Origin: Eledone cirrhosa
Lineage: Eukaryota
Length of the DNA: 64,000 nt
Direction: 5' to 3'
Assembly (NCBI GenBank): GCA_964016885.1
Contig: OZ024740.1
Location: forward strand, 122,450,001 to 122,514,000
The notes under the pieces were generated by a model. It searched no databases. It was not told the DNA's origin and saw only the letters and a program-made list of their open reading frames with translations. The first letter of the stretch is position 1. Each line of letters begins with the position of its first letter. This document shows positions 4,040-44,281 of the stretch, piece after piece. The translations under genes were made by a program, and so were the position numbers.

Positions 4040-5430
4040 AACATTCACCCGGAGGAAGCCACTGCAGGTTGTGCCTGGTGGAATCGGCAGAGATCATTAA
4101 ATGAAGATCGGCTATTAATTTAAAATCGGAAATCTTCATAAACTGCAGACACACAAAAAAAACATACCTTCTCCGCCATGGTATTCGGACATAAACCAAA
4201 GACAGACCACCTGAACACAGACAACAATAAGCACGTACACAACACTCTATTAACTATCACAATTATTATCAAGTCTCATCAACTCTATCATACCTTGCCA
4301 TTGTTATGCTCGTTAATATTATATTCTTTATTATGTCGCTCATTATTAAACATATCACCATGTAGTCACCAATCTCACCCACACGCACCGCACACACAAG
4401 ACATCCCCACACACCACCAGCATCCTATTAATTATCCCAATTAGTATCATTACTTTCATTTGTATCACCAATTTTTTCATTGTTATTATCACTATTACAT
4501 TTATTTCCTATCGCTATTAACATTTTCACCCTTCATATACATATCCAACTATTTTTTTTTTGTTACCATAATAGATTCCTCTAGAATATTTATCTAGGCA
4601 TACAAGTGCATACATATATACATGCATACGTATATATATATATGTGTACACGCTTGCAGGCCGACATAGTTGTATGAACGTCTGGGTCTATCAGCACGTA
4701 TATATCTGAGTGTGTGTATATGCAGGGTGTGTGTCTGTGGCTACGTATACGAGTATATGAGTGTGTGCGTGCACCAGTGTATAAGTTAGCCCATATAGTT
4801 AGTGTAGCAACTATTCTATTTATTCATTCAACTATTTATTCATATTCATTTCACGAACTAGCCAAAATTCTTAATCACCTTTTTCTAGTACAAACAATCT
4901 CTTTAAGAATATAGATAGTTTACATACTAAGCACACCAAAGAAAACGTTAAACCCCCACATACCAAAGCGTCATCCTTAACCTAGGTTTAATTTACTTTT
5001 ATTTAAATTCTGTTATTCCTCTTTGACCAACTTCTGACCAACAGAGAATCCACACATACCCCTTAGTACAGCACCGCACTCTTTTATCTCCCATCACGTA
5101 TAGCCCATAACCACTTCCATATCCACACCCAGCACCGTAGCTTCACTAGACATACGCCAACATATCTATGAAACAGTCAAAATACCACACCCTAGCTACT
5201 CACACCAACCATCGCTCACCACCACCACATCTTCATTATAATCTTCGCCCACCTACCATACACATCAATCATTCCTTACAGCAAAACCACCAAAACGTTA
5301 TAGACCTTTCTACGCCCTACGGGTTCATTCTGTCATTACCACAGCAGAAGTCCGACGATCTTTTGATTCCAGAATCGGGCTAGATCGATACAGATCGAAC
5401 GTTGGACTGATCAATAGTGAAACGTGCGTC
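4040..5430 (+). mobile_element. 3' remnant of a Penelope-like element (end of GIY-YIG region plus 3' extension)
   Basis: 4060-4176 reads HCRLCLVESAEIIK*RSAINLKSEIFINCRHTKK, matching the CxLCxxE..N..sE....CRH terminus also at 14760-14880 and 20270-20370; right boundary uncertain. Confidence 0.55.
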
Positions 5431-5433
5431 ACT

Positions 5434-5590
5434 ATCGGTAGAGGGTCGGACACCATGCTTTGACGCATAGAGTTATGGCCCTTGTCATTCTGAGTTCAAA
5501 TCCCGTCGAGGTTAACTTTGCTTTTCATCCTTACGGGGTTGATAAAATAAAGTACCAGTAATTGCTGCCCTTGTAGCAAAATGAGAAAAA
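5434..5590 (+). mobile_element. Meta-type SINE ending in (ATT)n
   Basis: ATCGGTAGAGGGTCGGAC..GAGTTCAAATCCC..Meta core..ATTATTATT. Confidence 0.8.
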
Positions 5591-5605
5591 ATTATTATTA
5601 TTATT

Positions 5606-6675
5606 CAGCTGGAATGTCTCCAAGCGCTTACAGCCTTCTACCAGCTGGGCACTAGTATCGATGGAACATCCACCTCAGCGTTCTATAGAGGACTAGTGGA
5701 GGGGAAGAGTGATGACGTTCTCAGGGAGACCCTGGGCGTCGAAGACGAACAGCTGTTCGCTGTCTTCAAGAGAACTTTCATACCGGGGCCTATGGACAAC
5801 TTCCAGAAATCCCTGGCCTGGCAGTGCTACCGAGGAGCGTTGCTGGTTCGAGATAAGACGGAAGTGCCGTCAGCCAGACCTGTCCGAGATGCGCACAGAG
5901 CGACGAAACCGTTGTGCACTTACTCGTTCAGTGTCCGAGCTTTGCTGACTTGTGGAGCTATGTAGAACATTTACTGTCACGTGTAGGATGGATCCGGTTA
6001 TCGACTGAGTCCATTGTGCAGATAGCCTTGCCGCCCTCCTTTAAGGAGGAGGAAGGGCAGGCAGTTTTCATCTGCCTGATGGCCATGGCGAAAGAGATTG
6101 TATGGTGGCCAAGGTTGAAAGGATTGAAGACACACACTCCCCTCTTCGACGAATCTCTAATTAACTTTTTCAAATTTCACTTGAAGAGGAAAATTTGGAT
6201 GGAGAGAGAGGAGTGCTGTCTTCTAGTAAGTTTGTTGAAAGGTGGGTGAAAATGGCGACTCTGGATCGAGTGAACGGGCCCGCTCTGAGTATGCGCCTGT
6301 AGACTGAGGAGTGGAAAACTGAGAGAGGGCGCTTGCCCTGGTGGTCAGGGTGGCCGTGGTCATTTGTCTGGTTTTCACCATGAGTGACCCTCGGAAATTT
6401 TCCCCCTATTGGGAAGTTTTTGTTATTTGAATTTTTTTTATATTTCTATCTTCTTATTATAACCTTTTTTACACGGCCAAAACCCACTTTGTATCATCTT
6501 GTACCATTATGTGCCGTCTGTTGACTTTGCCTTTCATCCTTACGAGGTCGATAAAATAAAGTACCAGTAATGCACTGGGATAATTGATGGCCTTGTGCCA
6601 AAAGTAGAAACAATTATGTGCCGTCTGTAATGTTTTTTCTTCATGTTAGCTCTTGTGGGCAATAAAGATAGCATA
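5606..6675 (+). mobile_element. 5'-truncated decayed Tx1-family copy (ORF2 C-terminus and 3' UTR), flanked by (ATT)n
   Basis: EGKSDDVL..PGPMDNFQKSLAWQCYRGAL..GQAVFICL..FFKFHLKRKI closely matches ORF 38516-41935; frameshifted; AATAAA then ATT repeats. Confidence 0.9.
6522..6612 (+). mobile_element. Meta-type SINE fragment inserted in the Tx1 3' UTR, ~16-bp TSD
   Basis: ATTATGTGCCGTCTGT on both sides (~6506-6521 and 6613-6628). Confidence 0.85.
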
Positions 6676-6687
6676 ATTATTATTATT

Positions 6688-9065
6688 GGCGACCTACGTA
6701 GGAATTCGTATTATCGTGAGCTCCGCAAAGGTTTGTTGTTTTCAGTTGTTTCAAATTGCCAGTTATGGAATATTTTTGTTGTTAAGTGTTTATAAGTTCA
6801 CATATATTGCTTTCTGAAAAGGACACAACAAATATTGGGGCCTTGAGCCCAAAACTTAAACTTTTTATTTATCAAACAAAATATTTCTTTGAAAAACAAA
6901 AACATGGACGACAAATTGACTGTTTTTAACAGACCACCACCCCCTCCCCCACCAACACCAACACCAACACCAACACCAACACCAACACCATTGTAAGCTT
7001 TGCTACGGTTCCCAACACTGAAAATATATTTAATAGCAGTTTGAATTATTTAGAATTGCCGCATAAAGACATGGATTTCCGGCCATTACCAATAACTGCA
7101 GGTGTTAAAGCCGCCACCCCCACCACCACAATGTCAAAGCGAACAACGAACACCACTGATACCACCACCTTCAACACCACCACCACAGCGACAACAGAAA
7201 CCCAAAAAATAAATTATTATCTCGTGACATCGAAATGGATTCACCCAGAATCGAATCTTCCACGCCGAACAACACTGACACCACCACCACCTCCACCAAA
7301 ACTAAAAATAACAATAACAACAACAGCAATAACAGCAACAATGAGAATAACATCAACACCACCGCGAAACAAAATGTGTCTTTTGCCAACGCAGCCGAGA
7401 AAAGCGAAACAATAGAGGTAGACAGGATGAATTAAATGATGCCAAGAGAATGGTAAAAAATGACGGGTTCAGGGTCAGCCTCACGCCCCCCCCCCCCCAC
7501 ACACACACAACTAATAAAATGGTTTTATAGGACGATAAACACAAAATCACGCCGAGTGGAACGGGCATCCGAGTCCCAAATACGAACAAATTTGGGACAT
7601 GTGTGGGCAAAAGATACCCACATCAGATGGAACCGTGGGCGTGTTCTTTGGAACACCACGGGAAGCCAGAGAGCACTACATGGCACCATTAAGAAGCGAC
7701 CACTTCACACTTGTCCGAAGCTATTGTGGTCAGAGACTCGTGAAGATCAGGGTGACCTACGTTCCAGCAGCCATCGAAATTCCCTGGCTAATGGCTGCAG
7801 TCCATGCACGCATCGAGTCCAACACAAAAATAATTGAAATAACAAAAGAAAAGCAGGAGAACTGGTCCGGATCTGGGATGGAGCTCCTGATCCAAGCGGA
7901 CCAAAAAATCATTGAGGAAATTCCAGAGGTGATAGACCTCACTGACGGCAGTCAACTCACCGTAATCGTTGAGGGTAGAAGGCCTAGGTGTGTCGTTTGT
8001 GGTGAAGAAACCCTCCTAAAGGTTTTCTGCCCTCGGGCTAAAAAGTTGAGGCCACCTCTCTTACCCACCGCAGTGACTCAACCATCAACACCACCAGCAG
8101 TAGAAATGGCAGCAACAACTGTAGCAGAAACAACAGAAGCAACTGTAGCAACAACAACCCCAGCAATAGTAGCAAAACCAACACCACCACCACCCACCGC
8201 GCCAGAACTAAGACCAGCGCCTCCACCATCCACCACGCCACAACAAAAACCAACACCTGAGGAGGATTTTCCAATCCCCGACCTATCGCAACTGTAGGCA
8301 GATTGTGACGACGAGGAGTGGGAAACTGTATCAGTAAAAAAGAAAAAAGAACCCAAAAAAGAAAAAAGTCTCTTCCTTCCCCGTCCAAAAACAAAATATA
8401 GGGGGAAACAAATAAACTAACAAACAAAAAAGTTAGGACAGATATGCCACCATCCAGACCAGCATCACCAACCCCATCACCACAAACACCAACACCATCA
8501 CCATCATTAACCCCAACACCACCAACACCACGAAAGTCACCAAAAATCGAAACAGAAACAAACCCACAACAAACGCAAACAAAACAAAACAACCAAAACG
8601 ATACACACTACACAGCATTACATTTGAACAACAACCAATTATTACACTACATCCAACACAACACAAGCATCACAGAAAAATACTACACAACACCCCCAAA
8701 ATTCACACCACCTGCACACATACAAATCACTCGCATCACACAGAAAACGTACACGACACTAAAACAAAAATTCCCCAAAGACATCGGAGACTTCCGACAA
8801 ACACTCTCCAGGAGGATTTATAAGGATATCCTTCCGGAGCAGGCACAAGCAGTGAGAAGGATGGAAGAACCATCCTTCCTCTACGAGAAGTAAGGTAAGT
8901 GGTCTTTCCCATCTTTTGCACTCCTATTCAACATGATCTCACTCAGAATAGGCAGCATAAATGCGCGTGGCTTGGGGTCGCCATGGAAGCAGGGCGACCT
9001 GCTCAACGACCTCAGGTCACTAAACATAGATGCAGTGGCCATCAGCGAGACTAGAATCTCCGTAG
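6688..9065 (+). mobile_element. 5' half of a second, diverged Tx1-family LINE: 5' UTR, frameshifted ORF1 (ATG 6904 to ~8893), start of ORF2 (8933-9062); truncated at (AT)n
   Basis: SYCGQRLVKIRVTYVP, VEGRRPRCVVCG and KFPKDIGDFR match ORF1 41971-44067; [33 protein letters not shown] matches the ORF2 N-terminus. Confidence 0.9.
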
Positions 9066-9074
9066 CACAGGCTG

Positions 9075-11350
<2,276 letters not shown>

Positions 11351-11354
11351 GTAT

Positions 11355-11394
<40 letters not shown>

Positions 11395-11631
11395 GAGTTA
11401 TAAACTCAAATAGTCTTTTCCAATTAAATAGCTCAAAGAAAGGGATATCTCTGAGCCGTGTAATACAAATGAATATATGATAGGGATAAACACTGATACA
11501 AGTATGCGTGTGTTTGCATTGCAAATGACCAAGTTAGCTAGATTGAAAAATACTAATTAAAATAATACGGTTTGCCTGTCTCGATTTAAAATAATAAATC
11601 AATAAAAACAAACCTATATTGCCAATAGCCG

Positions 11632-11744
11632 TGATACCTGGACAAATTTAAATTTTAAATTTTAAATTTGTTTCGCAACAATTAAGTGAAACTTCCTATT
11701 CCTGTGCCCTTCTGCAGGTATCCAGAAATTGGTAAGTTTCACTT
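11632..11744 (-). ncRNA. Type I hammerhead ribozyme variant with pseudoknot (inverted copy; GUC site, core CAGAAGG)
   Basis: Minus strand: AAGTGAAACTT..GATACCTG-CAGAAGG-GCA..AAGTTTCACTT..TGC-GAAA-CAAATTTAAA..TTTAAATTT-GTC-CAGGTATC. Confidence 0.72.
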
Positions 11745-11965
11745 CAACATACTTAGGAAGACTGAGAGAAATGTGTTGTTGAAATGTGTTTTGTTCTTTG
11801 AGCTATTTAACTCTATATATAATATTCTCGGCTCCATACGTTGAGCTAATGTTAAGTCCCATAAAACCAGCTGCTATTTTTAGCGGCACGAGTATAGGAC
11901 GTGCTAGACGCTGGGACACATGTGCGTTCAACAACACATTTCTCTCAGTCTTCCTAAGTATTTTG

Positions 11966-12077
11966 AAGTGAAACTTACCAATTTCTGGATACCTGCAGAA
12001 GAGCACAGGAATAGGAAGTTTCACTTATTTGTTGCGAAACAAATATAACATTTAAAATTTAAATTTGTGCAGGTATC
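11966..12077 (+). ncRNA. Type I hammerhead variant (core CAGAAGA; site GUG, probably inactive copy)
   Basis: Stem I 11988-11995/12070-12077, core 11996-12002, GAAA 12036-12039, pseudoknot 11966-11976/12016-12026. Confidence 0.72.
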
Positions 12078-12467
12078 ACGGCTATTGCCAATATAGGTTT
12101 GTTTTTAATGATTTATTATTTTAAAACGAGACAGGCAAACCGTATTATTTTAATTAGTATTTTTCAATCTAGTTAACTTGGTCATTTGCAATGCAAACAC
12201 ACGTATACTTGTATCAGTGTTTATCCCTATCATATATTCATTTGTATTACACGGCTCAGAAATATCCCTTTCTTTGAGCTATTTAATTGTAAAATACTAT
12301 TTGAGTTTATAACTCTATATATAATATTCTCGGCTCCATGCATTGAGCTAATTTTTAGTCCCATAAAACCGGCTGCTATTTTTAGCGGCACGAGTATAGG
12401 ACGTGCTAGACGCTGGGACACATGTGCGTTCAACAACACATTTCTCTCAGTCTTCCTAAGTATTTTG

Positions 12468-12574
12468 AAGTGAAACTTACCAATTTCTTGATACCTGCAG
12501 AAAGAGCACAGGAATAGGGAGTTTCACTTAATTGTTGCGAAACAAATTTAAAATTTAAATTTGTTCAGGTATCA
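12468..12574 (+). ncRNA. Type I hammerhead variant (core CAGAAAGA; GUU site)
   Basis: Stem I TGATACCTG/CAGGTATCA, GAAA 12539-12542, long A/U stem III, pseudoknot 12468-12478/12519-12529. Confidence 0.72.
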
Positions 12575-13054
12575 CGGCTATAGCCAATATAGGTTTGTTT
12601 TTATTGATTTATTATTTTAAATCGAGACAGGCAAACCGTATTATTTTAAGTAGTATTTTTCAATCTAGCTAACTTGGTTATTTGCAATGCAAACACTTGT
12701 ATCAGTGTTTATCCCTATCCTATATTCATTTGTATATATATATATATATATATATATTTATTTATTTTATTTTGTGCATATGCTTACCACGTGTGCTTGT
12801 TTATTTATTTATTTTTAATTGTTTTATTTTCATCATTCATATCGCTGTCAACTTGCTAATTTTTCATTATTTTTATTTTTGACTTTATTTTTTACTCATT
12901 TATCTTGGCCAGTTGTTGTAAATGCTTATTTTAGAATATACGCATGGTCGAGTGTGTATATGTTTGTTTATTTATCTTTATATCTTTACTTATTTTTATA
13001 TGTATCTGTGTGTGTGTGTGTGTGTGTGTGTGTTGGTGTGTATATATATGTATG

Positions 13055-13098
<44 letters not shown>

Positions 13099-13288
13099 TG
13101 TGTATTTACGTGTATGTGTATGTTTATATATATATATACATATGTATATGTGTGTGTGTGTGTGTATTTGTGTATATGTGTTTATATACTTATATATTTA
13201 TAATCTTTTTTCTTCTTCACTGAGACTCACTTTCATAGTTCTTATATTTTTTTATTTCAAATCCACATTCAATAAAAACACCAGGACT

Positions 13289-13349
13289 TTTTCATTCTGA
13301 CGACTGAAAGCAAATGTGTTTGCTTTCAAGAAACCACTGTTAAAGGAAA
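13289..13349 (+). ncRNA. Minimal hammerhead motif (probable solo PLE pseudo-LTR)
   Basis: TTTTCATT-CTGACGA-CTGAAAGCAAA-TGTG-TTTGCTTTCAA-GAAA-C-CACT-GTT-AAAGGAAA. Confidence 0.6.
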
Positions 13350-13495
13350 TAATTATCTTATGTTGTTTATTACATAACTATTTAGGTATATATATATATA
13401 TAACGAAAGAAATGTTGTAAGGAACCAGGTTGACCATAACGCACCAAAGTACTCAATACTTAGGGTAGTAGGGTGGGTAATAGGAACGAGTAGGA

Positions 13496-13590
13496 CTCTG
13501 ACGGCTGAGCTCAACCCGTTTCGACGGCTAATTCTGGACTAAATGAAAATGTTTATCCTGGTATATGAATAGCCGAGCTTCTCAGGAGGT
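13496..13590 (-). ncRNA. Degenerate hammerhead in the 3' pseudo-LTR of the PLE
   Basis: Minus strand: CTC-CTGAGAA-GCTCGGCTATT..AATTAGCCGTC-GAAA-CGGGTTGAGCTCAGCC-GTC-AGAG. Confidence 0.55.
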
Positions 13591-14109
13591 AATTCCATAT
13601 ATGGTAAAAGTGATTGTCACAAGGATTGGTGAAACGTTTGTTGTTGAGACACACAATTCTATCATGGCAATTTGTGGAAGGAAGGGGTAGCTGAACCTGC
13701 CAGTAGAAGAAAGGGGGAGAGTGAGTGGAGGTAACCCAGTCGTGCGTTGGTAGTGCCAACTACAGCGGGGCAGGAGGTCAAGCAAGTATACTAGGGAGGG
13801 GGAGAAAGTCGAAACAATAAGTAAATCAATATGGAGTAAATATATAGAAGAATACCAAGAATGTTAAGAATATAAAAAAGCAATTTCTGGTTACTATTCC
13901 CTAACGACAGTCATAAATCTCTCACTGGTACTGCTAAACTATAGAAAAGTTGACTAGGTGGGACGGAATTGTAATGAGACCATTTTAAGAGTTAGTAGTA
14001 ATCAACCGAATATATCTTACGGTGGCAGGTCAACAAGTGGGGGTGCCAAAATACTAAAGAAACAACCACGAAATAATAATTCAGAGTCCTGAAACTAATA
14101 CGAAATAAT

Positions 14110-14150
14110 TGTTTCTACCCTAGGAACAAGGCCAGTAACCACCCAGTGCA
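14110..14150 (-). mobile_element. 3'-tail stub of Meta-type SINE with 18-bp TSD
   Basis: AAACTAATACGAAATAAT on both sides (~14092-14109 and 14157-14174). Confidence 0.65.
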
Positions 14151-16695
14151 AAAAATAAACTAATACGAAATAATAATTCAGAATCCCGAAAATGAATACT
14201 AACACTATCTCTAAGGGTGCCGCTACGATACAAAAATTCTCGTGCAAACTACATAAATGCTCGTACGAAGTATATGAAAGATTTGATACGGAAAATTAAT
14301 TCAGAATCCCCCCCCCCCCAAAAAAAAATACTGATATAGGAGAAATTAAAGCAGAGATACCACTAAGAAATGTAGAAAGCACGGAAATAGGGCAGCCATC
14401 GGATAAGAAAGCAAGTATCTGGGGTCTATCACATCTGCTATAAAAAGCGGAGTCGGCCAATTCTATCATAGAATAGGGGATGGGGTGGGGGTACTGAGGA
14501 TACAAAGGACCGAGGGGCTGCCTCGTTTGGGCGAGAAAGTGAAAAGGACGACGACAAAGAAGGAGGACTGGGGAGGAAGGACCAGGAAGGGATGGGGAGA
14601 AGAAGGAAATATAGAGGAAACGATAAAAAGATATAAAAGAAGATCTTACGTCTACCTTTGCAAGCAGGGGTTACCCATTACAAAGTCGGCAAGTGGGGTG
14701 TTACAGCCCTTGTCTACCCCCTACCCCCCCCCCCCCCGCGCCCGGGTCATTATGGGGTTTGAGGGCGAGGTAAGTCCTACGCAATCTGTGTTTGCATGCA
14801 GTTACCAGTTCGTCTTTCTTGTTTAGGAGTTGGTCCGTCGAAAACAGCATTTGTAAAGTTTCCTCCGAGCATAAATTGCACGGACGGCGTCCTCCCGTGT
14901 AAGAGTTGGCTCTGGATAGTAAGCTCCAAGTGAGATCATAGGTAATATTGTTATCTTTGAGGTCCCAGATGTGGCCTGAAAGTGTGGTGGCGTGACGCCG
15001 GGCCGGGTGTCGGAAAGTATGTCTGTGTTGGTATAGCCAGGTCTTGAAGTCACATGCGGTTAATCCTATATAAGCTTTGTTGGAGCTGTCCGTCCTCACG
15101 TTGCACTGGTAGATCACATTACGATCTCTTCATCTGTTGTCGAGGGGGAAAATGGATCCATCAGGACAGTTGCACCTCCTGGTCGGCTCTCCACTGCTAT
15201 TTAGGTTATTTCTTCCATAGGGGTTGAGTTTTTTATTGTTAGAGGAGACGATGTTTTGTGCAAAGTTTGGTGTGGTGCTGTAGGAGAGTTTGATGGTATT
15301 TTTGTTGATTATGTTGTGGTAGCGGTGTTGTAGTGGAAAGCGTTTTTTCGATGAGCCTAAAGAAGATTTCCCGATAGGAGTTATCACCTCGGCGTTGTGG
15401 GGAGGATTGAACCATGTTACATTGCGTGAGCGGCGGTGTCGCCCGCTGGTTCCGCTAATGGAGGCTGGACAGTAGGATATTTCCTCCCGGAAACAACGCC
15501 GCTTGAGGGCCTGGTTGTAATAAGGCGCATGTTCCTCGAATATCTGCTCATTAGCGGACAAACGAGATGTGCGGAGGGAGATGTTTTTAACCAGGTTATT
15601 GCTGATGTTCCTAGCATGGTTTGACCGGCGGTGGATTTAGTGCAGGTTGTCGGTGGGTTTCCTTTATGGGTAGTACAGATCATTATCGAGGTCAAGGGTA
15701 ACGTCCAGGAAGTTTACTCGGGTCAGGGACGTTTGTAGGGTTATTTTAAATCCCCAGTCGCGGTAGAAGCTGATTAATTGTTTACGGACCCGGTATGTAC
15801 AATCCACCGCCGAATGCAGGCAACATATCGGTGAGTTTAACTTGTAGGAATAATCCTATAAGATCTGTGACCTCAGCCGAATCCGTCGCGCCCATGCTGA
15901 CGTCGAAGGGTGAGTCGGGAGCTCTCTATGTGAGTTACGATGCTTCAACTACCTTACCGCTATGTACGGCTGCCTTGGACTTTGCCGAGACACTTGCGCC
16001 CATCACCGACCAGGAAAGAAACATCATCCTCCACGCCAGGAAGACAGTCCTGCTTTTCGACAACTCCAAATGGATATAGAGAGCTCCCGACTCACCCTTC
16101 GACGTCAGCATATATTTATTTAATTTCAATTGCCTCTGTATTTTATTTACTTTATTCTTAACTCTGAAGCCGAGAATCATTCTGTTTCCTAGTTAGGATT
16201 TTAGTCTACGACTTCAGTTATACCATTTACGTGGTTTGGTCTGTGCGTGCAATTGTGCACCACGCTCCACATATGACGTATTATCTTCGTTTTTTTTCGT
16301 TCATTGCCAGAGAACGTCTCTATGAACCACCCAATAGAATATTTTCTACGACTTCTTTTATACCATAAACGTGGTTTGTTTTTGCGTGTAATTGTTTTTC
16401 ACCGCTCCATTATATTCGTTTTTTTCCCGTTCTTTGCTTGGTAACGTTTCCACGAACCAAAGTATCGTCTTCCTCTCTTCCTTCGGTTGCAACGTTTTTT
16501 GAAATATTCACTTCTGCGTTCACATATTGACTTTGTTAATTTCAGAAGATCCCCTTAAGCGTGAAATCAGCGATTCTTTGCTTAAACTTTAATCTGTTAT
16601 TTTAATAAATATTTTCTCTAAGATTCTTATATGTTTGATATATATTTATCCTTATCGATCCCTCTTTGGATTTTAGTCTTCAAATTTATTATTAT

Positions 16696-16698
<3 letters not shown>

Positions 16699-16792
<94 letters not shown>
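16699..16792. repeat. (AT)n-(AG)n microsatellite
   Basis: Direct reading. Confidence 0.95.
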
Positions 16793-16794
<2 letters not shown>

Positions 16795-18394
16795 CGAAGA
16801 TACATAGACGCATATTTTATTATGCTATAATTGCTTGTTGTATGCTTATACTCATTCATATGCATGTGTAAAAACATGGGTATAGAATATAATTGGCAGA
16901 GGACATTTAATTTTCAATAACTGACCAGTGAACTTAGGATTGTATGAATATATTTTTCAGTTACAATAAATCTATTACAAAAACAGTAAAATAATTCCAG
17001 ATTTTAATTATTGATTCTTTAAACGATACAAATATCATTGTGATATGAAGAATATTGAGTGGAGAATAACTTGCAGCAATGTCATATACATTTCTTTTTA
17101 GTCATATTTTTAATGCACTTTGGAAATATTTTAACAACAAATATTTCTATGACGCCTATAACTCTTATAAATGTGATATATTTATTGCAACCCTTAATGT
17201 ACATGACCATAGAGTTCCTAATGTTTGCTAAACTTTATCGACAATCATGACAATATTCGTGATGTATCAAAATATTATAGTCGATTCTAATTATGAAAAT
17301 AATTTATATCTATTAATTTAGTATTTTCTCTGATTACACATCCATTTTCCCACGCCAAAACACTTACACACATTTGTTTTATAACATACGTAATACAAAC
17401 TTAAAATGATTCTGATATAACATATAGAAAGCAATTTACAATCCATATGAAGACGAAAAGAAATTGTATTAAATAATATATAGCATTATTTTTGTGCTTT
17501 TAAACGTTAATGGGATTTTAATGGAGAAACATTTTCAGTAATGTTAACTGAAAAAGAAAATGTTTAATTATTTTCCTAATATAGAGAAAGTAAATAAGAC
17601 ACAAACTAAGAAATGAATTTTCATATTATTGCTTATAATCATTTAGAAAGGATCGTTGTTCCTGGCAAATTGTAAACTTTACAAGAATGTGTGTTGGGGG
17701 GGGGGGTGCATGTGTGTGTGTGTGTGTGTGTGAACACTTAGAAAAATCAACTAGAGGACAAGACAACGAATGAAAGAAACAAAGTTAAATGAAAAGCAAT
17801 TTTTTATGGGGAAACCTTAGAAAATTATTTTCTGAAAATAAAAATACAAATGAAATAGACAGAACTCCATGACCATTGAAGTGGACTTTGGCAGTTTCGA
17901 TCCCTACCAACGGTACTGCTGGTCCACATGCGTCTGACACATGTCAAAGCGCTGTTACATAGAGAAAGAGACTAGGGAAACAACAACTTATAGCAATTAA
18001 TCTATGACAAGTACCTCTTATACCACAAAACTCTCAGGAGTGTAAACAAAGGTAAAAAGAAAACAAAGACGAGGAAGAAAGGATAGAAAGTATCAAGAAG
18101 AAAGCAAGATATGTTTTAAAAAATTGTATCGAAATATATCAAGGCAGAAACAGATCCCATAATATTTAAAGGTGTCCTGGCCAAATTACTCCTAGAAATC
18201 TAACTGAACAACCCATATATACTTATACACAAATACATCAGAATTATGCATACAAGCTAATCGAAAAGGAGAGATAAGTGATTAGTTATGAGAATTATAT
18301 GTCAGTAGTGAAGGGGTACAGAAATGATATGTTAGTGTACTCAATGCGTAGTAGATGCAAGACAAGTAAACAATGTGAGTAGCCTAAGAAATAA

Positions 18395-18965
18395 TTGTTT
18401 CTACTTTTAGTACGAGGCCAGCAATTATCCCGGTGCATTACTGGTACTTTATTTGATCGACCCCGTAAGGATGAAAGCAAAGTTAACCTCGCGGGATTTG
18501 AACTCAGACCGTAAAGGGACCTAACTATGCTGCAAAGCATGGCGTCCGACCCTCTACCGATACTGCCAATTCACCGCCCTTAACAATTGTTTCTACATTA
18601 GGCACAAGGCCAGCAATACCCAGTGCATTACTGGTACTTTATTTTATCGACCCCGTAAGGATGAAAGGCAAAGTCAACCTCGGCGGGATTTGAACTCAGA
18701 TCGTAAAGGGACGTAACTATGCTGGAAAGCATGGCGTCCAACCCTCCACCGATACTGCCAATCCACCGCCTAAGAAATAATTGTTTCTACTTTAGGCACA
18801 AGGCCAGCAATTATCCAGTGCATTACTGGTACTTTATTTTATCGACCCCGTAAGGATGAAAGGCAAAGTCAACCTCGGCGGGATTTGAACTCAGATCGTA
18901 AAGGGACGTAACTATGCTGGAAAGCATGGCGTCCGACCCTCTACCGATACTGCCAATCCACCGCC
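18395..18965 (-). mobile_element. Three head-to-tail full-length Meta-type SINEs
   Basis: Units ~18395-18580, 18587-18770, 18781-18965; GCCTAAGAAATAAT at 18382, 18768 and 18963. Confidence 0.9.
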
Positions 18966-19025
18966 TAAGAAATAATGTCAAGCAAACAAGTCTATAAACA
19001 TAGCTTATAATACAGAAATGATATG

Positions 19026-21294
19026 TTAGAGAAAACAATACCAAATTCTTGAACAAATATATTTAATGGCTGACAATTGTTTCCGAAGCCATATCAGTAT
19101 TCTTCACATACAGATGATAATTATCGATTATAAAATAGATAATAGTAAGTGAAATTAAAAAGAAATATTTTATATCGTCTCCCCATCGTAGCCAAAAAGA
19201 AAAAGTAAACATAAAAATTCAAAAATACATGTCACTGGAAATAGGGAGTACAATAAAAGTAAAATTTGAAGAATACGTGTCCACATATTAAATGAGAACA
19301 TATTTAACGAAATAGCGTCGTACTATAATGGTGCTCTTTCTAAATCAGGCTATAAGGATACCTGCTGGTCTATCCAACCATAAATTAAGTAATAATAATG
19401 TATTTGCACAGATTTGTCTCTAGCAACAATAGATTTAAAAACACTAATAGAAAAAAACTGTTCTCCTATAATGGTTTGCTATGATTTCAGGATTAGTTCT
19501 AGCAGACACGTTAACAAAACGCCTTCCGATAATAACTTAAAAATACTCTTAACATACCTATAAACCCTTCTGATACTGCTAGTACTCCGTGCCGAAATAG
19601 GTCTCGTAATCTGTCCTGGTTTCATCCTCCGTTCTCCTCTAATATAGCGTCTAACCTCCCTAAAATGTTCTCCATCTTACGCAACAATATCCCTCCTAGC
19701 CATAAGTACTATGAATTATTTCGCCAAAAAAAACAACCTTTAGATTTCTTTCTCTACTACCCTTAATTTGGCCGATTATATTGCTTTTAGTAACAATAAG
19801 AAACTATGAAATCATAGTGAATCCCTTTCTGCTAATTTACATCTACCACTTAACTCTTTATTTACGAATAATTCAAACATTAATAGTTATTCTTTTCACT
19901 CTCCTCTCACCTCACCGCCAAATGATACGCCTACTAATTCTATCCGTTTACCTACAACATCTACCACCTCTGACCGTAACTGTAATTGTAGAAATCCTAA
20001 CATCTGACCTCTGAATGGTCAATATCTTAATAATATTGTAGCATATAGATGCACTGTTAAAACCCATAATGACACTAAGACGTACATTGGTGCTACTGAT
20101 ATCTCTTTCAAGAGTCGTTTTAATTACCATAGACATTCATTTAAGAATAGTAATATAAAAGTTTCTACTTCTTTAGCCAGACATATAAATACGCTAAACT
20201 CTCTAATATTGAATACTCTTTAGTCTGGGGTATCTTAGATAAATCTTCTCCTTACAAATGTTGTAAAGGTCATTGTGGTCTCTGTTTATTGGAAGCTTAT
20301 TTCATAACTATGTCTAAACCCAGCCTAATGAATGACCGCAACGAGATCGTAATTAATTGCCATCATCGTTTGGCATACTCGTTCGCTAACAGGGTTTATG
20401 ATCTCACTTAGATTTCATTAGTTAAATCGACTTTTTCCCTTTTCTTTTTTTTACTATTCGTTTTTAACCCACCACTTATTTTCCCTTCACATTTTAACTA
20501 GTTCACATTTTCTTCCTAATTAATTCATATCCTATTTTTTTACTTTTTAAATATTTTATTTTTACCTATGTTATATTTATACTATGTTTTCTTTACTTCC
20601 ACTAATTATATTATTTTAATTTATAAGCCCCTATACTCCTTTAAACTCACTTATTTTTACAATGATATATAATACACTTCCTATTGTATGCCCCTATATT
20701 CTTATTTGTGTTTCTTTTTTTACTACTTTGGCCTTTCTGCTGCTTTTATACACTTTCTGACTATATTCTTTATATGCTCTTTATTTCAAATTATTAATTT
20801 GGATTTTATCTATAATTTTCTTATTATTAGAATTTACAGACTTTTTTTAAAGAACGTCTTTCAAATATTCAAAAAAATCCTTAATTGCCTATTATATTTT
20901 GCTACTTATTTATCTCCCGTTCTTCATATATATGTCCCTTGTTATAACTACTTCCCGGATTTCTCTATTCTCTTTTTTCTAAGCGGTTAAATTCGTAAGA
21001 TTTATAATGTATTATTATCTTACTTACGTTGTTAATATGTGGACACGTATTCTTCAAATTTTACATTTATTGCAGTCCCTATTTTCAGTGACATGTATTT
21101 TTTAATTTTTGTTTAATTTTTCGTTTCGGCTACGATGAGGAGACCATATCAAACTTTTTTTAAAAAACCATTTGCTATTATCGATTTTATAAACGATAAT
21201 TATCATCTGTATGTAAAGAATACTGATATGGTTCCCGAAACAATTGCCAGTCATTAAATATATTTGTTCAAGAATTTGGTATTGTTTTCTCTAA
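19026..21294 (+). mobile_element. Decayed Penelope-like element with inverted ~265-bp pseudo-LTR arms (19026-19292 / 21032-21294) and GIY-YIG relic
   Basis: 19981-20140 reads CNCRNPNI*PLNGQYLNNIVAYRCTVKTHNDTKTYIGATDISFKSRFNYHRHSF; arms are diverged reverse complements. Confidence 0.82.
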
Positions 21295-38515: not shown

Positions 38516-41500
38516 TTACAGATATATACTCAGAGTCGGCCCATTCACTCGGGCCATTCTTGCTTCTCTCACCCATCTTTCAACAAAATGCTGGGAAGAG
38601 AGCACTTCCCTCTCTACTCTGATTTTCCTTTTCAAATGAAATTTGAAAAAGTCAATCAGAGCATCACCGAAGAGGTAAGTGCTCGTCTTCAGCCCTTTCA
38701 AACGTGTCCACCATACTATCTCTTTCGCCATGGCCACCAGACAGATAAAAACTGCCTGCCCTTCCCGGCTAAAGGAGGAGGGCGGGGCAATCCTCACGAT
38801 GGACTCAGATGATAGCTGGATCCGTCCTAAACGCGACAGCAGGTGTTCGACATAAACCCACAAGGCAGCAATTTTCGGACACTGGACGAGTGCGTGCAGG
38901 ACGGTTTCGTCGCCCTGCGCGCATCTCGGACATGCCCGGCTGACGGCACCTCCATGCCTGTAGAGTTTATCCCGAACTGGCAAGGCTCCTCGGTAGCACT
39001 GCCAGGCCAGAGATTTCTGGAAGTTGTCCATAGGCCCTGGCCCGAAAGTTCTTCCGAAGAGATTGGCTAGTTGATTTTCGTCGACGCCTAGAGTTTCCCC
39101 AAGTACGTCGTCGCTTTTCCCCTCCACTAATCCTCTATAGAACGCCGAGGTGGAGTTTCCACCGATCACATTGCCCGATTGGTCGAGGGCTGTGAGCGCC
39201 TGAAGACATTCCAGTCTCCAGGCGCTCCCTCTCGGTCTTCGCTTGACCCAGGACTGCAGCTCCGTCAAGGAAACGAGCTGGGGAAAAACGCGTCTAGCAA
39301 ATGGCGAACACACCTGATCACCGTCGAGGAAGAGGTGGAGATGTCGTAGCCTGAGCGCGTGCCTGCGCATCATCAGCCACGGCATGCCCAGCCCTCCACG
39401 TAGCGGGTGTTGACAACAGATGGACCGCCTGACCATCGGAGCACGTCCCTTCCACAAAAAGCGAAAGAGCAAACGCTCCAGCGCAGTCAGGCGAGGCTTA
39501 GGACAAGGTACGACGGTTAGGCGGTAGCAGATGACAGACGCGATGTACGCGTTAGCCACCTCCGCTCGACCTTTCAGGGATAGCTTCCTCTCCGCCCATT
39601 TCTGGGTGAGAGAAGCCACCCTGCTCGTCACCTCGTCCCAGTTTTTGTCCGTCTGGAGGTCCGGACCGAACCAGACCCCTAGCAATTTAACCGGTCCGTC
39701 CGTCCAGCGCCCGGCGACGCTGTTGGACGGCATGGACCTGCCTCTCCAGGCGCCGAGCTGCAGGCCCACTGACTTTTCCTGGTTGATCATTGCTCCTGTC
39801 ACCGCTTCGTATTCTCTTAGTGTAGTGCCGATCGCCTCGATGTGTTTGGCGTTCGACACCACTACGGTGACATCGTCCGCATATGCTGACACGGATCTTC
39901 CGCATCCTAGTTCGCGCGGGACTCCCCTCAACGTCTCCAGTTTGTGCAGTAATGGCTCGAGAGTCAATACGTACAAGAGGGACGAGAGGGGACATCCTTG
40001 GCGGACCGAGCGCATGATGTTGAACGGTTCCGACAGGTGACCGTTCACTCTCACCACAGAGCAGATGTCGCTGTGCATGGCAGCGATCCAGCCTCTGAAG
40101 ACGGGCCCAAAGCCAGCCGCCCTCAGGACTGCCGCTAGGTAACGATGGTCGACCCTATCGAAAGCTTTCGGCTGATCTAAATTGATCAAGGACCCACCCG
40201 TGCCAGGTTCCCTAGCTACCCTCTCTACGATGTATCGCATGAGGTGGAGGTTGTCGTGGATGGATCTGTCGGGAATGGCGCATGTCTGCGCCTCTCCCAC
40301 CAGACCACCAACGACAAGCGCCAACCTCTTTGCTAGCACCTTGGCCAAAATCTTAAACTCTGTGTTTAGCAGAGTTATGGGCCGGAAATTGTCTATGTTA
40401 TCCCCCTTGTTCGGATCCTTTCTCAGCAGTGCCACCGCTCCTCGGCTCACAGAACTGGGAATTCTCCCGTTCTGTTGCCAGTTGCAGTAGACGTCCGCCA
40501 AGAGGCCTCCGAACAAGTCTGGCATCTGTACGTAAAGTTCATAGGGCAGACCATCCAAACCAGGCGATTTACCCCTTGTGCAGACAGTCATTGCCTCCCG
40601 TACTTCAGCGGCTGTTATCGGCTTTTCGCAACACTTCGCCTCAGTGGCCGAGAGCCGCGGCAGTCCGTCGAGGTAGACACTAAAGTCCATCCCTCTACCC
40701 GGCCCCCCGCTGCCCCCGAACAGCTGAGCGAAGTGTCGCTGAAAAGCTTCACACATTTGCCCGGGATCGAGTAGCATGCGCCCGTCGTGGTCCACCAAAG
40801 ACCGGATCGTGGCTTTGTTGCCACGACGCGCCTCCGCCACTCGGGCCCATTGAACGGCTTTCGTCCCATCGTGTCTGAGAGCACGCACCCTAGCTCTGAC
40901 AACGCAGCCTTCGTGCTTTGCATTGAAGAATTGGTCAAGGGCCAATTTCGCCGCAAGCACGTCGGTCGCAATGCCTTTGCTAAGCGCCTCGTCTAATTTT
41001 CTAACTAGTTCTCCCTCTGCTCTATTTTTCTCTATTGCTAAAGCCTTACTAAACCTAATCGATTCTATTCTAATCGCTCTTTTCAGAGCAAACCACCACT
41101 TGTTGTTGACGATGGACCCCGTCAACGCCCGCTTAACTAGTTCGCTAATCCGGTCTCTGTAGGCCTTGCGCGCTGGTAAGGACGCGTTTAGCTTCCAGTA
41201 GCCGGGTCCTCGTCTATGAAGCCTATCTAAGTCAAGCACACAGGTCACGAATTTGTGGTCCGTGTAGCTGACTATCTTGAATTGTGGACAGCCTATGCTA
41301 GACCTATCTATTTCCCTACAAAATACTCTATCTAGATATGATCTGGATGACCCTATGCGGTTTGTCCAAGTCCACATTGGCACATTCGGGAAATCCAATC
41401 GGTACCTGTCAGACAGTTCAAAACGCCTGAGCAGGTTGGTGAGGCTCTTGCACCCTCCACCCCTATCCGCTAATCCCACACAGTCCCAGCGTGCATCTAA

Positions 41501-41935
41501 GATCCCGTTCCAGTCGCCCACTAACACTAAAGAGCGGGACGTTCCAAGAAAGGTCTCCAGACGCCGGAAGAAATCAGGCCGCCCTGCTCCTGTCGGGGCA
41601 TAGACGGCCACTAGCCTGAAAGCTTGCCCGTCTCCGCTGGTCACGTCCAGCACCACCAGCTTACCCTCTGGGTCCAGGAAGATGGCCCGTATGGCGAGAT
41701 CCAAACCTCTCCGAAAAAGCACAGCAACTCCTCCACCCGATCCAGGACGGCTGGGAGATGCGTACACATCGTAGCCGCCGAAGATCGGTGCGAAGGCCCG
41801 TGCTTCGGAGATTCTGGTCTCGCTGATGGCCACTACATCTATGTTTAGTGACCTGAGGTCGTTGAGCAGGTGACCCTGCTTCCATGACGACCCCAAGCCA
41901 CGCGCATTTATGCTGCCTATTCTGAGTGAGGTCAT
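38516..41935 (-). CDS. Tx1-like ORF2: APE endonuclease, reverse transcriptase, C-terminal CCHC (1139 aa)
   Basis: INARGL, ISET, VYAP, GDWN, YLDR, TDH; KSPGLDG, FRPITLLN, DQPKAFD, RQGCPLS, YADD, LLGV; CPRC..ETVLHALVQC. Confidence 0.95.
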   Translation of the reverse strand: MTSLRIGSINARGLGSSWKQGHLLNDLRSLNIDVVAISETRISEARAFAPIFGGYDVYASPSRPGSGGGVAVLFRRGLDLAIRAIFLDPEGKLVVLDVTSGDGQAFRLVAVYAPTGAGRPDFFRRLETFLGTSRSLVLVGDWNGILDARWDCVGLADRGGGCKSLTNLLRRFELSDRYRLDFPNVPMWTWTNRIGSSRSYLDRVFCREIDRSSIGCPQFKIVSYTDHKFVTCVLDLDRLHRRGPGYWKLNASLPARKAYRDRISELVKRALTGSIVNNKWWFALKRAIRIESIRFSKALAIEKNRAEGELVRKLDEALSKGIATDVLAAKLALDQFFNAKHEGCVVRARVRALRHDGTKAVQWARVAEARRGNKATIRSLVDHDGRMLLDPGQMCEAFQRHFAQLFGGSGGPGRGMDFSVYLDGLPRLSATEAKCCEKPITAAEVREAMTVCTRGKSPGLDGLPYELYVQMPDLFGGLLADVYCNWQQNGRIPSSVSRGAVALLRKDPNKGDNIDNFRPITLLNTEFKILAKVLAKRLALVVGGLVGEAQTCAIPDRSIHDNLHLMRYIVERVAREPGTGGSLINLDQPKAFDRVDHRYLAAVLRAAGFGPVFRGWIAAMHSDICSVVRVNGHLSEPFNIMRSVRQGCPLSSLLYVLTLEPLLHKLETLRGVPRELGCGRSVSAYADDVTVVVSNAKHIEAIGTTLREYEAVTGAMINQEKSVGLQLGAWRGRSMPSNSVAGRWTDGPVKLLGVWFGPDLQTDKNWDEVTSRVASLTQKWAERKLSLKGRAEVANAYIASVICYRLTVVPCPKPRLTALERLLFRFLWKGRAPMVRRSICCQHPLRGGLGMPWLMMRRHALRLRHLHLFLDGDQVCSPFARRVFPQLVSLTELQSWVKRRPRGSAWRLECLQALTALDQSGNVIGGNSTSAFYRGLVEGKSDDVLGETLGVDENQLANLFGRTFGPGPMDNFQKSLAWQCYRGALPVRDKLYRHGGAVSRACPRCAQGDETVLHALVQCPKIAALWVYVEHLLSRLGRIQLSSESIVRIAPPSSFSREGQAVFICLVAMAKEIVWWTRLKGLKTSTYLFGDALIDFFKFHLKRKIRVEREVLSSQHFVERWVREARMARVNGPTLSIYL

Positions 41936-41970
41936 GTTTAAAATATAGTGGAAAAGATGGGAAAGACCAC

Positions 41971-44067
41971 TTACCGTACTTTTGGTAGAGGAGGGATGGT
42001 TTTTACATCCCTTTTCACTTGATCGTCTGGTGAAGGGACCGTTGAATCGTCCCTTCGGCTGGTCGTCGGCTCTTCTAAGAGAATGTCTGAATATACTCTT
42101 CGATTGATGGTTCCTCCTAGGTCCCTGAAATCACCAACTGCGTTGGGGAATTTCGTTTTAATGTTTGTGTATTGTTTCTGTGCTATTTTTAGCAGTCTTA
42201 TGTTAGTTGGCGTTTTGATTGGTGCTGGTATTATGTAGTCCTGTTGTGAAATGTCTGTGTGTTCAATTATGTAAGTCATTAGTTTCGTGTTGTGTGTATT
42301 TATTGCCGTGCATTTGTTTTTCTGGGGGTGGGGTGTGGTTCTGCTATTTTCTTGTCGTTGTTGCTGGGTGTGTGTGTTTTGTTGTTGTGTTTGCGATGTT
42401 GGTGCTTGTGGTGGTGGTGTTGAAGGTGTTGTTGGCGGTGGGGTTGTCGCCGGTGGTGATGGTGGCGCTAGTGTGGGTGGTGATGGTGTTGGTGTTGTTG
42501 CTGCTGTGGGTCTCTTTGCAGTAGACTTTACCCTTTTCTCATTTCTTTCCTCCCTTTTCAAAGGCGACGATGCGCTGCTTCTGCGTTTGTGCCTTCTTAC
42601 GACCTTTTGCCATCTCTCTCCCACCTCACACTCCATGTCTGATTCTGTGAGGTCGGGGAGGGGTACCAACTCCACTCTTTCACTTGTTGTTGTTGGTGAT
42701 GTTTGCACTGGAGTCTCTGTTGCAGCTGCATTTGGTATTGCTGTTGTTGTTGTTAGTATTTCCACTGCTGCTGCTGTTTTTGATTTCCGTGGAGTGGGTA
42801 TGGGTGCCACGGGCCTATCGTTCCTGGTTGCCACTTGTCCTGTTGCTGGTAGCCGTGGAGCCGGATTCGGAAGGAGGGGGGTTTTCTTCTTTTCCAGGGT
42901 CTTCTCGTTGCAGAAGGCCCTGAGGTGAGTCTTCGATCCACAGCGAAAGCATTTCGGGCGTTTGCCCTCAACACTTATGGGCAGTTGAGTGCCGTTATCG
43001 AAGTCTATCACATCCGGGATAGCTTCGATGCACTCCTGGTTGGTTTGGATTAGCATCTCAATGGAGGAGCCGACCCAATCTTCTCTTACTTTTTTCTGTA
43101 CTTGCAGTACAGTTGTTTTGTCCTCGATTCCGACGAGGACAGACGCGGCCAGCCAAGAAGGGGTCATTCCGGGGGGGACGTGGGTCAGTTTGACCCTCAC
43201 AATTTTTTGCCCACAGTAGGAGGGCACCAACACCATTTCCTCGCTCCTTAGGGTCACTACTGATTGGGCCTTTGCCTCCTGGGGTGTGGCAAAAAGTACG
43301 TCTACGGTGGCATATTTTTTGCCTCGGGTGATGTGCGTTTTCCGCTGCCACACAGACCCCAAGGCTTTTTGTATTTGGGCCTCTGTGGCTCTTTCCACCC
43401 TACGGGATGTTGTACTTACTGTACGGTACGTGACCGTACAGTGCTCTTGGGTTTCGAAAAAATTTTTCGCTGCCTTGCAGATTGCTCGGTGTCGGTTCTT
43501 TGTCACCATCTTCTTCGCTTCCTCTAATTCCTCATTTGTTATGAGGATTGTTTCCAAGTTTTTCGCAATACCTGCAAATGAGATTGGTTTTTCTCTGCTG
43601 TTGTTGTTGTCGTCAGAGCTGCTGGTACTTTTGTTGTTGCTGCAGGTACTACGACTACTGCCTCCGCCGCTGTTGCTGTGGTTGTTGTTGGTGTTGCTGC
43701 TGCTAATGCTGTTGTTGTTTATGCTGCTGGTGATGCTGTTGCGGCTGCTACTGTTGTTTTCATTGTCACTGTTGCTGTTGTTATTACGGCTGCTACTGCT
43801 ATTATTCCTGACGTCAGACGAATGAACTGGGTTTTCGTATTTCCCGCACACCTGTTTCGTCGCTGTCGTCGTCGTCGTGGAGAAACCTTGCACGCTTTGC
43901 ACGAGACTTTTCTTTTCTTTCGTCACTTGCGAAAGAGAAGGGAGGGAGAGAGACACATTTAAAGAAGGGAGGGAGAGAGACAATCTTCTCTCTGCTGTAG
44001 TGATGATTGAGGAAGAAGAAGACGGAATGAGTGGGAGTGACGTATGAAATTTCTTTTTCGTAGCCAT
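41971..44067 (-). CDS. Tx1-like ORF1 (RRM-like core, CCHC zinc knuckle, low-complexity S/N and P/T tracts; 698 aa)
   Basis: CFRCGSKTHLRAFC (CX2CX4HX4C); lies upstream of ORF2; homolog at 6904-8893. Confidence 0.9.
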   Translation of the reverse strand: MATKKKFHTSLPLIPSSSSSIITTAERRLSLSLPSLNVSLSLPSLSQVTKEKKSLVQSVQGFSTTTTTATKQVCGKYENPVHSSDVRNNSSSSRNNNSNSDNENNSSSRNSITSSINNNSISSSNTNNNHSNSGGGSSRSTCSNNKSTSSSDDNNNSREKPISFAGIAKNLETILITNEELEEAKKMVTKNRHRAICKAAKNFFETQEHCTVTYRTVSTTSRRVERATEAQIQKALGSVWQRKTHITRGKKYATVDVLFATPQEAKAQSVVTLRSEEMVLVPSYCGQKIVRVKLTHVPPGMTPSWLAASVLVGIEDKTTVLQVQKKVREDWVGSSIEMLIQTNQECIEAIPDVIDFDNGTQLPISVEGKRPKCFRCGSKTHLRAFCNEKTLEKKKTPLLPNPAPRLPATGQVATRNDRPVAPIPTPRKSKTAAAVEILTTTTAIPNAAATETPVQTSPTTTSERVELVPLPDLTESDMECEVGERWQKVVRRHKRRSSASSPLKREERNEKRVKSTAKRPTAATTPTPSPPTLAPPSPPATTPPPTTPSTPPPQAPTSQTQQQNTHTQQQRQENSRTTPHPQKNKCTAINTHNTKLMTYIIEHTDISQQDYIIPAPIKTPTNIRLLKIAQKQYTNIKTKFPNAVGDFRDLGGTINRRVYSDILLEEPTTSRRDDSTVPSPDDQVKRDVKTIPPLPKVR

Positions 44068-44281
44068 GTTGTTTTTTGTTTAAAATGAATATTGGGTACA
44101 AAACCCCAATAACTGGTTATTTAACCCCGAAGGGCCAAATAACGGACAGAAAGACCCCTCTCACGAGGAGGAGGGTGTCTTTATCAACAATTTGGTTCAA
44201 GTTTTAAACAATTTACAATTGTTTTAACGGTTAAAAATTACTATACCTTACAGAGCCGAGCCTCCGTCAACCATGGCATTC

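Follow-up and report, generated by a model that had tools for sequence, protein, structure and literature searches.

A non-coding repeat with a variant hammerhead core, probably mobilised by Penelope-like proteins, in Eledone cirrhosa

The window, by which we mean the whole stretch of 64,000 nucleotides of Eledone cirrhosa DNA that was analysed, contains a non-coding repeat of ~500 bp that Penelope-like proteins probably copy in trans, inserting it into (TA)n microsatellites, and whose hammerhead, with A at position 4 of the core (A4), is predicted to cleave itself. The unit is likely to be a non-autonomous Penelope-like element of the non-LTR retrozyme type, with a core variant that is apparently undescribed. 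U4 is treated as an invariant base of hammerheads, and the descriptors used to search for them require it.

Three copies of the unit occur in the window at a spacing of 502 bp, between a (TA)n target microsatellite at 11359..11394, common to the unit and a neighbouring Penelope-like element, and (TA)n on the right flank at 12733..12765. Copy 1 (11385..11783, minus strand) is inverted and 5'-truncated, covers unit positions 120 to ~518 and stops in (TA)n at the long end, E2. It is followed on the plus strand by the inversion junction with a short remnant of the 3' end of the preceding unit (11784..11807), by copy 2 (11808..12309) and by copy 3 (12310..12735), which covers unit positions 1-440 and stops in (TA)n at the short end, E1; the 'tail' between the fixed ends E1 and E2 occupies 12248..12325 (plus strand). 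The original prediction had read this locus as three 502-bp repeats; the spacing stands, but only copy 2 is a complete 502-bp unit, copy 1 lacking the start and copy 3 the end. Re-examination of the sequence found the three units where they had been placed, each with stem I as GATACCTG/CAGGTATC, flush with a CAGAAG(A/G) core, a GCA..TGC stem II, GAAA, an A/U stem III and a GUN site. The hammerhead of copy 2 (11988..12077, plus strand) comprises stem I (11988-11995 with 12070-12077), the core CAGAAGA (11996-12002), stem II (12003-5 with 12033-5), GAAA (12036-9) and a GUG site (12067-9), for which the family state is GUC, with the predicted cut between 12069 and 12070. On the same strand, its 5' arm (11966..11987) is made up of a distal AAGTGAAACTT (11966-11976) and a proximal ATTTCTG (11981-11987), and loop II (12006-12026) is complementary to this arm. 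The hammerhead of copy 1 (11633..11744, minus strand) has the 5' arm, stem I, core CAGAAGG, GAAA, stem III and GUC, and that of copy 3 (12468..12573, plus strand) has the core CAGAAAGA at 12498-12505 and GUU at 12563-5. Each copy has its own private defect of the core or site, and these are the ones originally listed, A9G in copy 1, GUG in copy 2 and an extra A in copy 3, the last with GUU in addition. The circularised unit has a GC content of 33% and a folding z of -3.1 against 40 shuffles, and the hammerhead regions fold at z -3.0 to -6.1. Its longest ATG ORFs encode 31 aa (plus strand) and 44 aa (minus strand), in agreement with the earlier statement that no meaningful ORF is present. A sigma-70 promoter scan, which is not meaningful in such DNA, gave matches no better than shuffles. 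Elsewhere in the window there are a LINE-like element at 38516-44079 (minus strand), whose endonuclease/RT/zf-RVT frame of 1204 aa has another of 702 aa upstream of it, a decayed relative of this element at ~6900-9070, a 195-bp SINE-like repeat in three tandem copies at 18382-18976 and a 139-bp repeat, also in three tandem copies, at 46747-47160.

Copies of the unit range from monomers and dimers to an array of ~60 kb, with hundreds dispersed through the 3.0-Gb genome, which is the outcome of the copy-number check proposed with the original prediction. A first look gave 2784 candidates, 38 of which were scored. A 22-mer across the core occurs exactly 261 times genome-wide as against 0 times for the reversed pattern, indicating that the hammerhead pattern is not due to chance; in a metagenome scan it was found 0 times. 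There are 744 exact hammerhead frames with A4 (CAGANGA) in the genome (control, 6), and ~92 of the first 100 of these were judged by eye to belong to the unit family. A core-to-core dimer pattern had 45 matches, 37 of them inside one pure, head-to-tail array of ~60 kb (C11:4449410-4510040), for which ~119 units is an estimate from ~23 kb of array sequence. Among 36 scored array units, 24 keep CAGAAGA, GAAA and GUC and 12 have a core or site change (9 with G5A and 3 with an altered site). The array begins after TATATA at unit position 9 and is interrupted at unit position 124 by unrelated sequence, and the G5A variant has spread inside it. Four subfamilies, A (that of the window), B, C and E, diverge by up to ~20%. 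A three-unit insertion is found twice at C3:329.35-329.36 Mb, inverted, ~12 kb apart and with identical flanks, which is either a segmental duplication or an assembly artefact. Two near-identical insertions were found on separate contigs. Next to each lies a fragment of one Penelope-like family, the same in both cases, and insertion and fragment were possibly duplicated together. Three contig runs of undefined kind from one sample merely repeat the variation of the repeat itself. An RNA-editing signature was considered and rejected: an excess of A>G over T>C was seen in subfamily A (p 0.006) and not seen in C (p 0.93), and variants that several copies have in common do not count as independent.

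The data support A4 as a genuine variant of the unit hammerhead at the level of the family, as had been proposed. With stem I and the loop held fixed, 536 exact family matches had A4 as against 18 with U4. The family does not have the canonical C3-U4-G5-A6-N7-G8-A9 core and is a core variant of the type I hammerhead; G10.1-C11.1, G12-A13-A14, A15.1-U16.1, H17 and three flush stems are all present at family level. There is one such fold per unit, and hammerhead-bearing units follow one another directly in the core-to-core dimers and in the array. A set of 65 hand-picked natural copies (20 A, 12 B-like and 33 C) was examined for covariation. The proposed structure was paired in 90.4% of cells, compared to 24-43% with slid partners. 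Two-sided changes were observed for two pairs of stem I (U-A in 26 copies and C-G in 24; closing pair G-C in 56 and A-U in 3) and one pair of stem III (G-C in 31 and A-U in 27), these counts being of sequences and not of events, with few independent changes within the family. All 14 core and closing positions are identical in the majority sequences of subfamilies A, B and C, against a background of 84 differing columns in 430 (P about 0.05), and N7, the free core position, varies. A search for G8 mutants found 329 matches (control, 55), of which the first 100 were chance matches and scattered single mutants, including four sporadic mutants of the unit family; no hammerhead family fixed for a G8 change was visible among these 100. 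Unlike the G8 mutants, A4 and C4 are fixed in clades, suggesting that tolerance is specific to position 4 in a comparison made with G8 only. An alternative register with a CUGCAGA core, the 'A6C' reading, was dropped: it would leave stems I and II unable to close, and the sequence of subfamily C here is CCGCAGA. Also set aside was a second apparent CAGAAGA family, consisting of five loci without stem I among the first 100 of the 744 matches, which we take to resemble the 3' part of a LINE ORF. The Rfam hammerhead search gave no match in window positions 5000-20000 at E up to 5, only microsatellite artefacts, and no match at E up to 1 in five loci that included two with canonical cores. Hence the prediction that canonical searches would miss this family was correct, but U4A is not the sole cause; as canonical-core relatives were missed also, it is the architecture, and not U4A alone, that hides these hammerheads.

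The unit family belongs, as one of its branches, to a larger superfamily of ~500 bp in which canonical CUGANGA cores occur. A pattern for the frame only detected 1924 hammerheads with U4, 744 with A4 and 213 with C4 or G4 (controls 1, 6 and 7), totals that include unrelated hammerhead families. Twenty of the first 30 U4 loci examined resemble the unit (68-84% in pieces), and in many canonical U4 relatives the end comes ~245 or ~330 nt past the core, at the two distances seen in the unit family. In close relatives the canonical CUGANGA lies in the same register as CAGANGA. Across 33 superfamily copies, covariation was found in stem I for 6 of 8 pairs and in stem III for 2 of 4. In trees of 42 and 48 selected copies, a U4 sister lineage is basal and the A4 clade is nested inside, with modest support (86/87 and 83/89). 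A C4 clade is nested within the A4 clade (97/91), and other C4 copies fall elsewhere in the trees. These results suggest that position 4 went from U to A to C with the junction staying in register. A midpoint-rooted tree, in which the U4 copies appeared to be a late reversion, was dropped once outgroups had placed these copies as basal. In the youngest clade (E/C4), stem III has been lengthened to ~30 bp with A15.1-U16.1 still in register; GUC and the CAGGUAUC beyond the cut are kept in 5 of 8 C4 loci, and a span of 130 nt searched in the remaining 3 did not contain the 3' strand of stem I. Stem III of this subfamily has been duplicated into a ~30-bp hairpin with a second copy of GCGAAAC/GCGGAAC (L240, L253-L260). 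Several unrelated hammerhead families with a long loop II are present among the 1924 canonical frames (for example L216/L223, L217, L222/L226, L232). Further families are apparently fixed for C4 (CCGAUGA/CCGACGA; L261-L266, L272) and have 5'-arm/loop II complementarity with little similarity to the unit; they may have lost U4 independently.

The 5' arm and loop II had been predicted to form an 11-bp pseudoknot. The helix is present, but the 11-bp form needs G at unit position 211, which occurs in only 3 of 117 copies, the three of the window; family-wide this helix has 8-9 bp and is the distal half of a longer one. A proximal helix of 7 bp (ATTTCTG/CAGGAAT) abuts stem I and is joined by the distal helix through mismatches, so that the whole bipartite helix has ~19-21 bp, and the same helix is found in most canonical relatives. 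In the family it is paired in 85.6% of cells over 12 pairs, and in the superfamily in 78-87%, with two-sided change in 3 of 10 pairs. The mean pairing energy of arms with their own loops is -15.7 kcal/mol as against -12.3 kcal/mol when swapped, and canonical arms with loops of the A4 family give -10.1 kcal/mol. In the lowest-energy fold, the 5' arm and loop II form a long hairpin and stem II is absent; this fold is more stable by 4-15 kcal/mol than that of the hammerhead, the latter computed without the 5' arm. RNAalifold predicts this long hairpin plus stem III for the family and no consensus pairs for the gappy superfamily alignment. By geometric estimate, the return strand of 6-10 nt cannot span 20 bp with stem II closed, and hence only part of the helix would brace the active hammerhead fold.

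The ends of the insertions implicate Penelope-like enzymes. We sampled 115 insertions, of which 71 are inverted, with two outward 3' ends, and 44 single-armed. The short end E1 lies at unit position ~440, after ...CATTTGTAT, and the long end E2 at ~510-518, after ...TATAACTC. One E1 and one E2 were present in 56 of the 57 inverted insertions with both ends classifiable (the other 14 inverted insertions have an unclassified end), and E1/E2 ends were observed in 27 of 27 within 60 loci picked by the core 22-mer alone and not by their ends. TA-rich DNA adjoins 138 of 171 classified ends. Neither end is the predicted cleavage site, between unit positions 262 and 263. This site is crossed by 106 of 142 arms, 43 of the 142 are longer than one unit, and none stops at unit positions 260-265, in a sample enriched for hammerhead-bearing copies. 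Units of the same insertion share alleles (0.077 versus 0.260 between loci). Taken together, the read-through and multi-unit arms, the lack of stops at the site and the shared alleles fit a template of single origin that was either circular or an uncut multimer. A linear cleaved monomer was rejected as the template, there being no 5' stops at 260-265 in the 142 arms.

The neighbouring Penelope-like element (9398..11359, plus strand) is broken and 5'-truncated and has an RT, a CX5CX2C motif and a GIY-YIG, with a short end at 11359 and an inverted long-tail end at 9398-9467. A minimal hammerhead-like motif at 11113..11165 (plus strand) reads CTGACGG, and CTGACGA in a young copy. The repeats had been described as directly following this element in (AT)n; the two do adjoin, but they were inserted separately, and the element carries a minimal hammerhead of its own and does not resemble the unit in DNA sequence. 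Its family is young and very abundant, with 25,472 candidates and open frames of >1000 aa; intact ORFs of ~1200 aa with an Asn-rich insert, in a ~4.1-kb head-to-tail unit, were also seen (L189-L202). Its copies end in (TA)n, and inverted pairs combine, in 17 of 17 cases, a short end with an end that bears a longer tail, mostly of ~58 nt. The target preference and end rule of the unit are those of this resident autonomous family, and the unit also has the Penelope-like layout of a partial tandem, a 5'-inverted copy and a tail at one end. No sequence was found to be shared by the unit or tail and this family, with 243 of 500 shuffles as good for the tails. The neighbour was therefore rejected as the parent of the unit, and its family is a candidate helper only. 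The available text of PMC11167929 describes a Penelope-like protein that cuts and extends both strands, with two internal start sites on the RNA defining the tail, and that of PMC8557442 describes the tail, inversion and (TA)n targeting for Penelope-like elements; metazoan retrozymes have been linked to these elements (PMC4209133 and a 2026 preprint, 10.64898/2026.07.22.740005, as far as the texts compared go). The end pattern makes it highly probable that Penelope-like proteins mobilise the unit.

We propose the following mechanism. Tandem copies would be transcribed, and in the transcript an 8-bp stem I, a stem II of 2-3 bp and a variable stem III would form the hammerhead, a structure backed by covariation. 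Braced by part of the ~20-bp helix, it is predicted to cut after GUC, and we consider it likely that the unit hammerhead cleaves to a meaningful extent. Self-cleavage would probably be slow; the full-length 5'-arm/loop II helix excludes stem II and may act as an off state. By analogy with published retrozymes, the monomer would be closed by a host ligase, and circular RNA of unit length is predicted from A4 units. A Penelope-like RT-endonuclease would then nick both strands of (TA)n and prime at two internal sites ~70-78 nt apart, one for each strand, which would yield two outward arms (one with E1 and one with E2) that run through the cleavage site and often exceed one unit. Local expansion of one such locus may have produced the ~60-kb array.

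An alternative is that the mobile element is the same and its A4/C4 hammerhead has little or no activity left, the fold serving as a structural or protein-binding module while uncut multimers from tandem loci are copied. We regard this as unlikely, although it is the rival that survives best. Single and double mutants of the CUGA turn, where described in PMC9901934, have low activity in a type III hammerhead, except for a C3/G8 swap. The text of PMC3088659 reports that U4C considerably lowers activity in vitro, yet leaves enough for viroid infectivity. PMC11167929, in the text compared, reports that insertion in vitro was unaffected in hammerhead mutants, that is, did not need cleavage, and that uncut RNA was the main substrate, and in the 2026 preprint (10.64898/2026.07.22.740005), as far as its text was compared, cleavage was observed for 1 of 9 predicted retrozymes. 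The drift of position 4 from U to A to C, the arms that freely cross the cleavage site, the lowest-energy fold without stem II and recurrent core changes in subfamily C (among 33 copies, 6 with A13G and 5 with G12A) also fit a ribozyme that has been lost. However, the other unpaired core bases and GUC are fixed across subfamilies ~20% apart while N7 is variable, the junction register has survived large changes of stem III, and no hammerhead family was visible among the first 100 of the 329 G8-mutant matches.

It is improbable that the unit is the pseudo-LTR (pLTR) of an autonomous Penelope-like family whose 5'-truncated insertions are the copies. The Penelope-type ends and tail would be expected of such copies, and homology between retrozymes and pLTRs is described for Xenopus in the text compared of the 2026 preprint (10.64898/2026.07.22.740005). 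Against this, arms run from one unit straight into the one before it, 43 of 142 exceeding a unit in length, and the ~60-kb array is pure. With the protein of one helper family as the query, none of 30 non-microsatellite 5' junctions had a Penelope-like protein upstream in sense, the one marginal match (E 0.046) lying far from its junction. No GIY-YIG was found in 20 upstream ORFs, and the single RT among them carries a zf-RVT like the LINE of the window. The unit is independent of a Penelope-like ORF in the ~115 sampled insertions; the attachment to such ORFs for which a check had been proposed was found in no sampled locus. Least probable is an ordinary satellite or inverted-repeat element that looks like a hammerhead by chance, for which the missing Rfam match, the A4 that breaks the consensus and the one long array could be cited, but which is already largely refuted by the canonical CUGANGA of close relatives in the same register and by the covarying stems, and which the fixed internal ends in (TA)n also contradict.

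The reading of the unit as a mobile element with a self-cleaving A4 hammerhead places it close to three known systems, here compared with the accessible text of the reports cited. Like metazoan non-LTR retrozymes (PMC7229834; 10.64898/2026.07.22.740005), it is a non-coding, low-GC tandem unit of a few hundred bp with one type I hammerhead each, GC below the ~45-50% taken as typical, no LTR layout, and copies from monomers to long multimers that coexist with autonomous Penelope-like elements. The 2026 preprint gives a size range of 51-972 bp, into which the unit falls. These features, with dispersed copies and Penelope-type ends, uphold the original assignment to the retrozymes. The unit differs from them in having a CAGANGA (later CCGANGA) core in place of CUGANGA and a ~20-bp Watson-Crick 5'-arm/loop II helix in place of the usual loop-loop contacts, and it is larger than the 170-400 nt RNAs of PMC7229834. 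The two-ended (TA)n insertion was measured here, whereas the words 'inverted' and 'microsatellite' are absent from the main text of that paper; no parent pLTR was found for the unit in the sampled loci, and its cleavage and RNA circles are predictions. With Penelope-like elements (PMC8557442; PMC11167929) it shares, as far as their texts describe, partial tandems, a 5'-inverted copy, a tail at one end, (TA)n targets and two internal starts of reverse transcription, but it has no ORF, its tail is ~70-78 nt compared to their 30-40, it has a full hammerhead with a long stem III in place of their minimal pLTR motif, and its sequence does not resemble that of the abundant candidate helper found locally. 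The pseudoknot-braced hammerheads described in the texts of PMC3088659 and PMC11300833 also have a very short stem II and a loop II helix beyond stem I, and the rare natural core variants U4C, A6C and U3-A8 are known. The helix of the unit is, in contrast to those, much longer (~20 bp and bipartite) and directly abuts stem I, and the unit is a eukaryotic repeat with A4 fixed in hundreds of copies; the solved pseudoknot hammerhead, in the text of PMC11300833, has the canonical U4 and a separate stem-loop that donates the pseudoknot strand.

No published U4A or CAGANGA hammerhead was found in the literature searched, which covers few subscription papers. Lunse et al. (2017) reportedly described hammerhead variants in Penelope-like elements. 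The searched literature, including the accessible text of PMC6962438, also yielded no cephalopod or octopus hammerhead-Penelope family of this kind, and the accessible texts of PMC6155905, PMC10085705 and PMC11014351 hold nothing relevant to position 4. The available supplement text of PMC3088659 has no match for an A4-type variant, and its variant figures lie outside the text compared, so that A4 may have been reported earlier.

In summary, the hundreds of mobile copies in the unit superfamily form a U, A and C series at position 4 on one scaffold, and with canonical relatives as controls they make the contributions of U4 and of long pseudoknot helices directly testable. If the A4 and C4 variants cut, censuses of hammerheads in animal genomes are undercounts; if they do not, there is genomic evidence that retrozymes spread without cleavage. 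The rule of one short and one long end, common to the repeat and the autonomous family, ties animal retrozymes to Penelope-like enzymes mechanistically and beyond co-occurrence, and the unit offers a template of 500 nt on which the formation of tails and inversions can be dissected. A bolder view, which we hold tentatively, is that this is a large ~500-bp retrozyme superfamily (part of the ~2,900 exact frames) of undescribed architecture, in which the helix would be both a brace and a folding switch and would free U4 to change, the U, A and C lineages would all self-cleave and spread, and the insertions would record a Penelope-like dimer that always primes two strands at two sites on the RNA.
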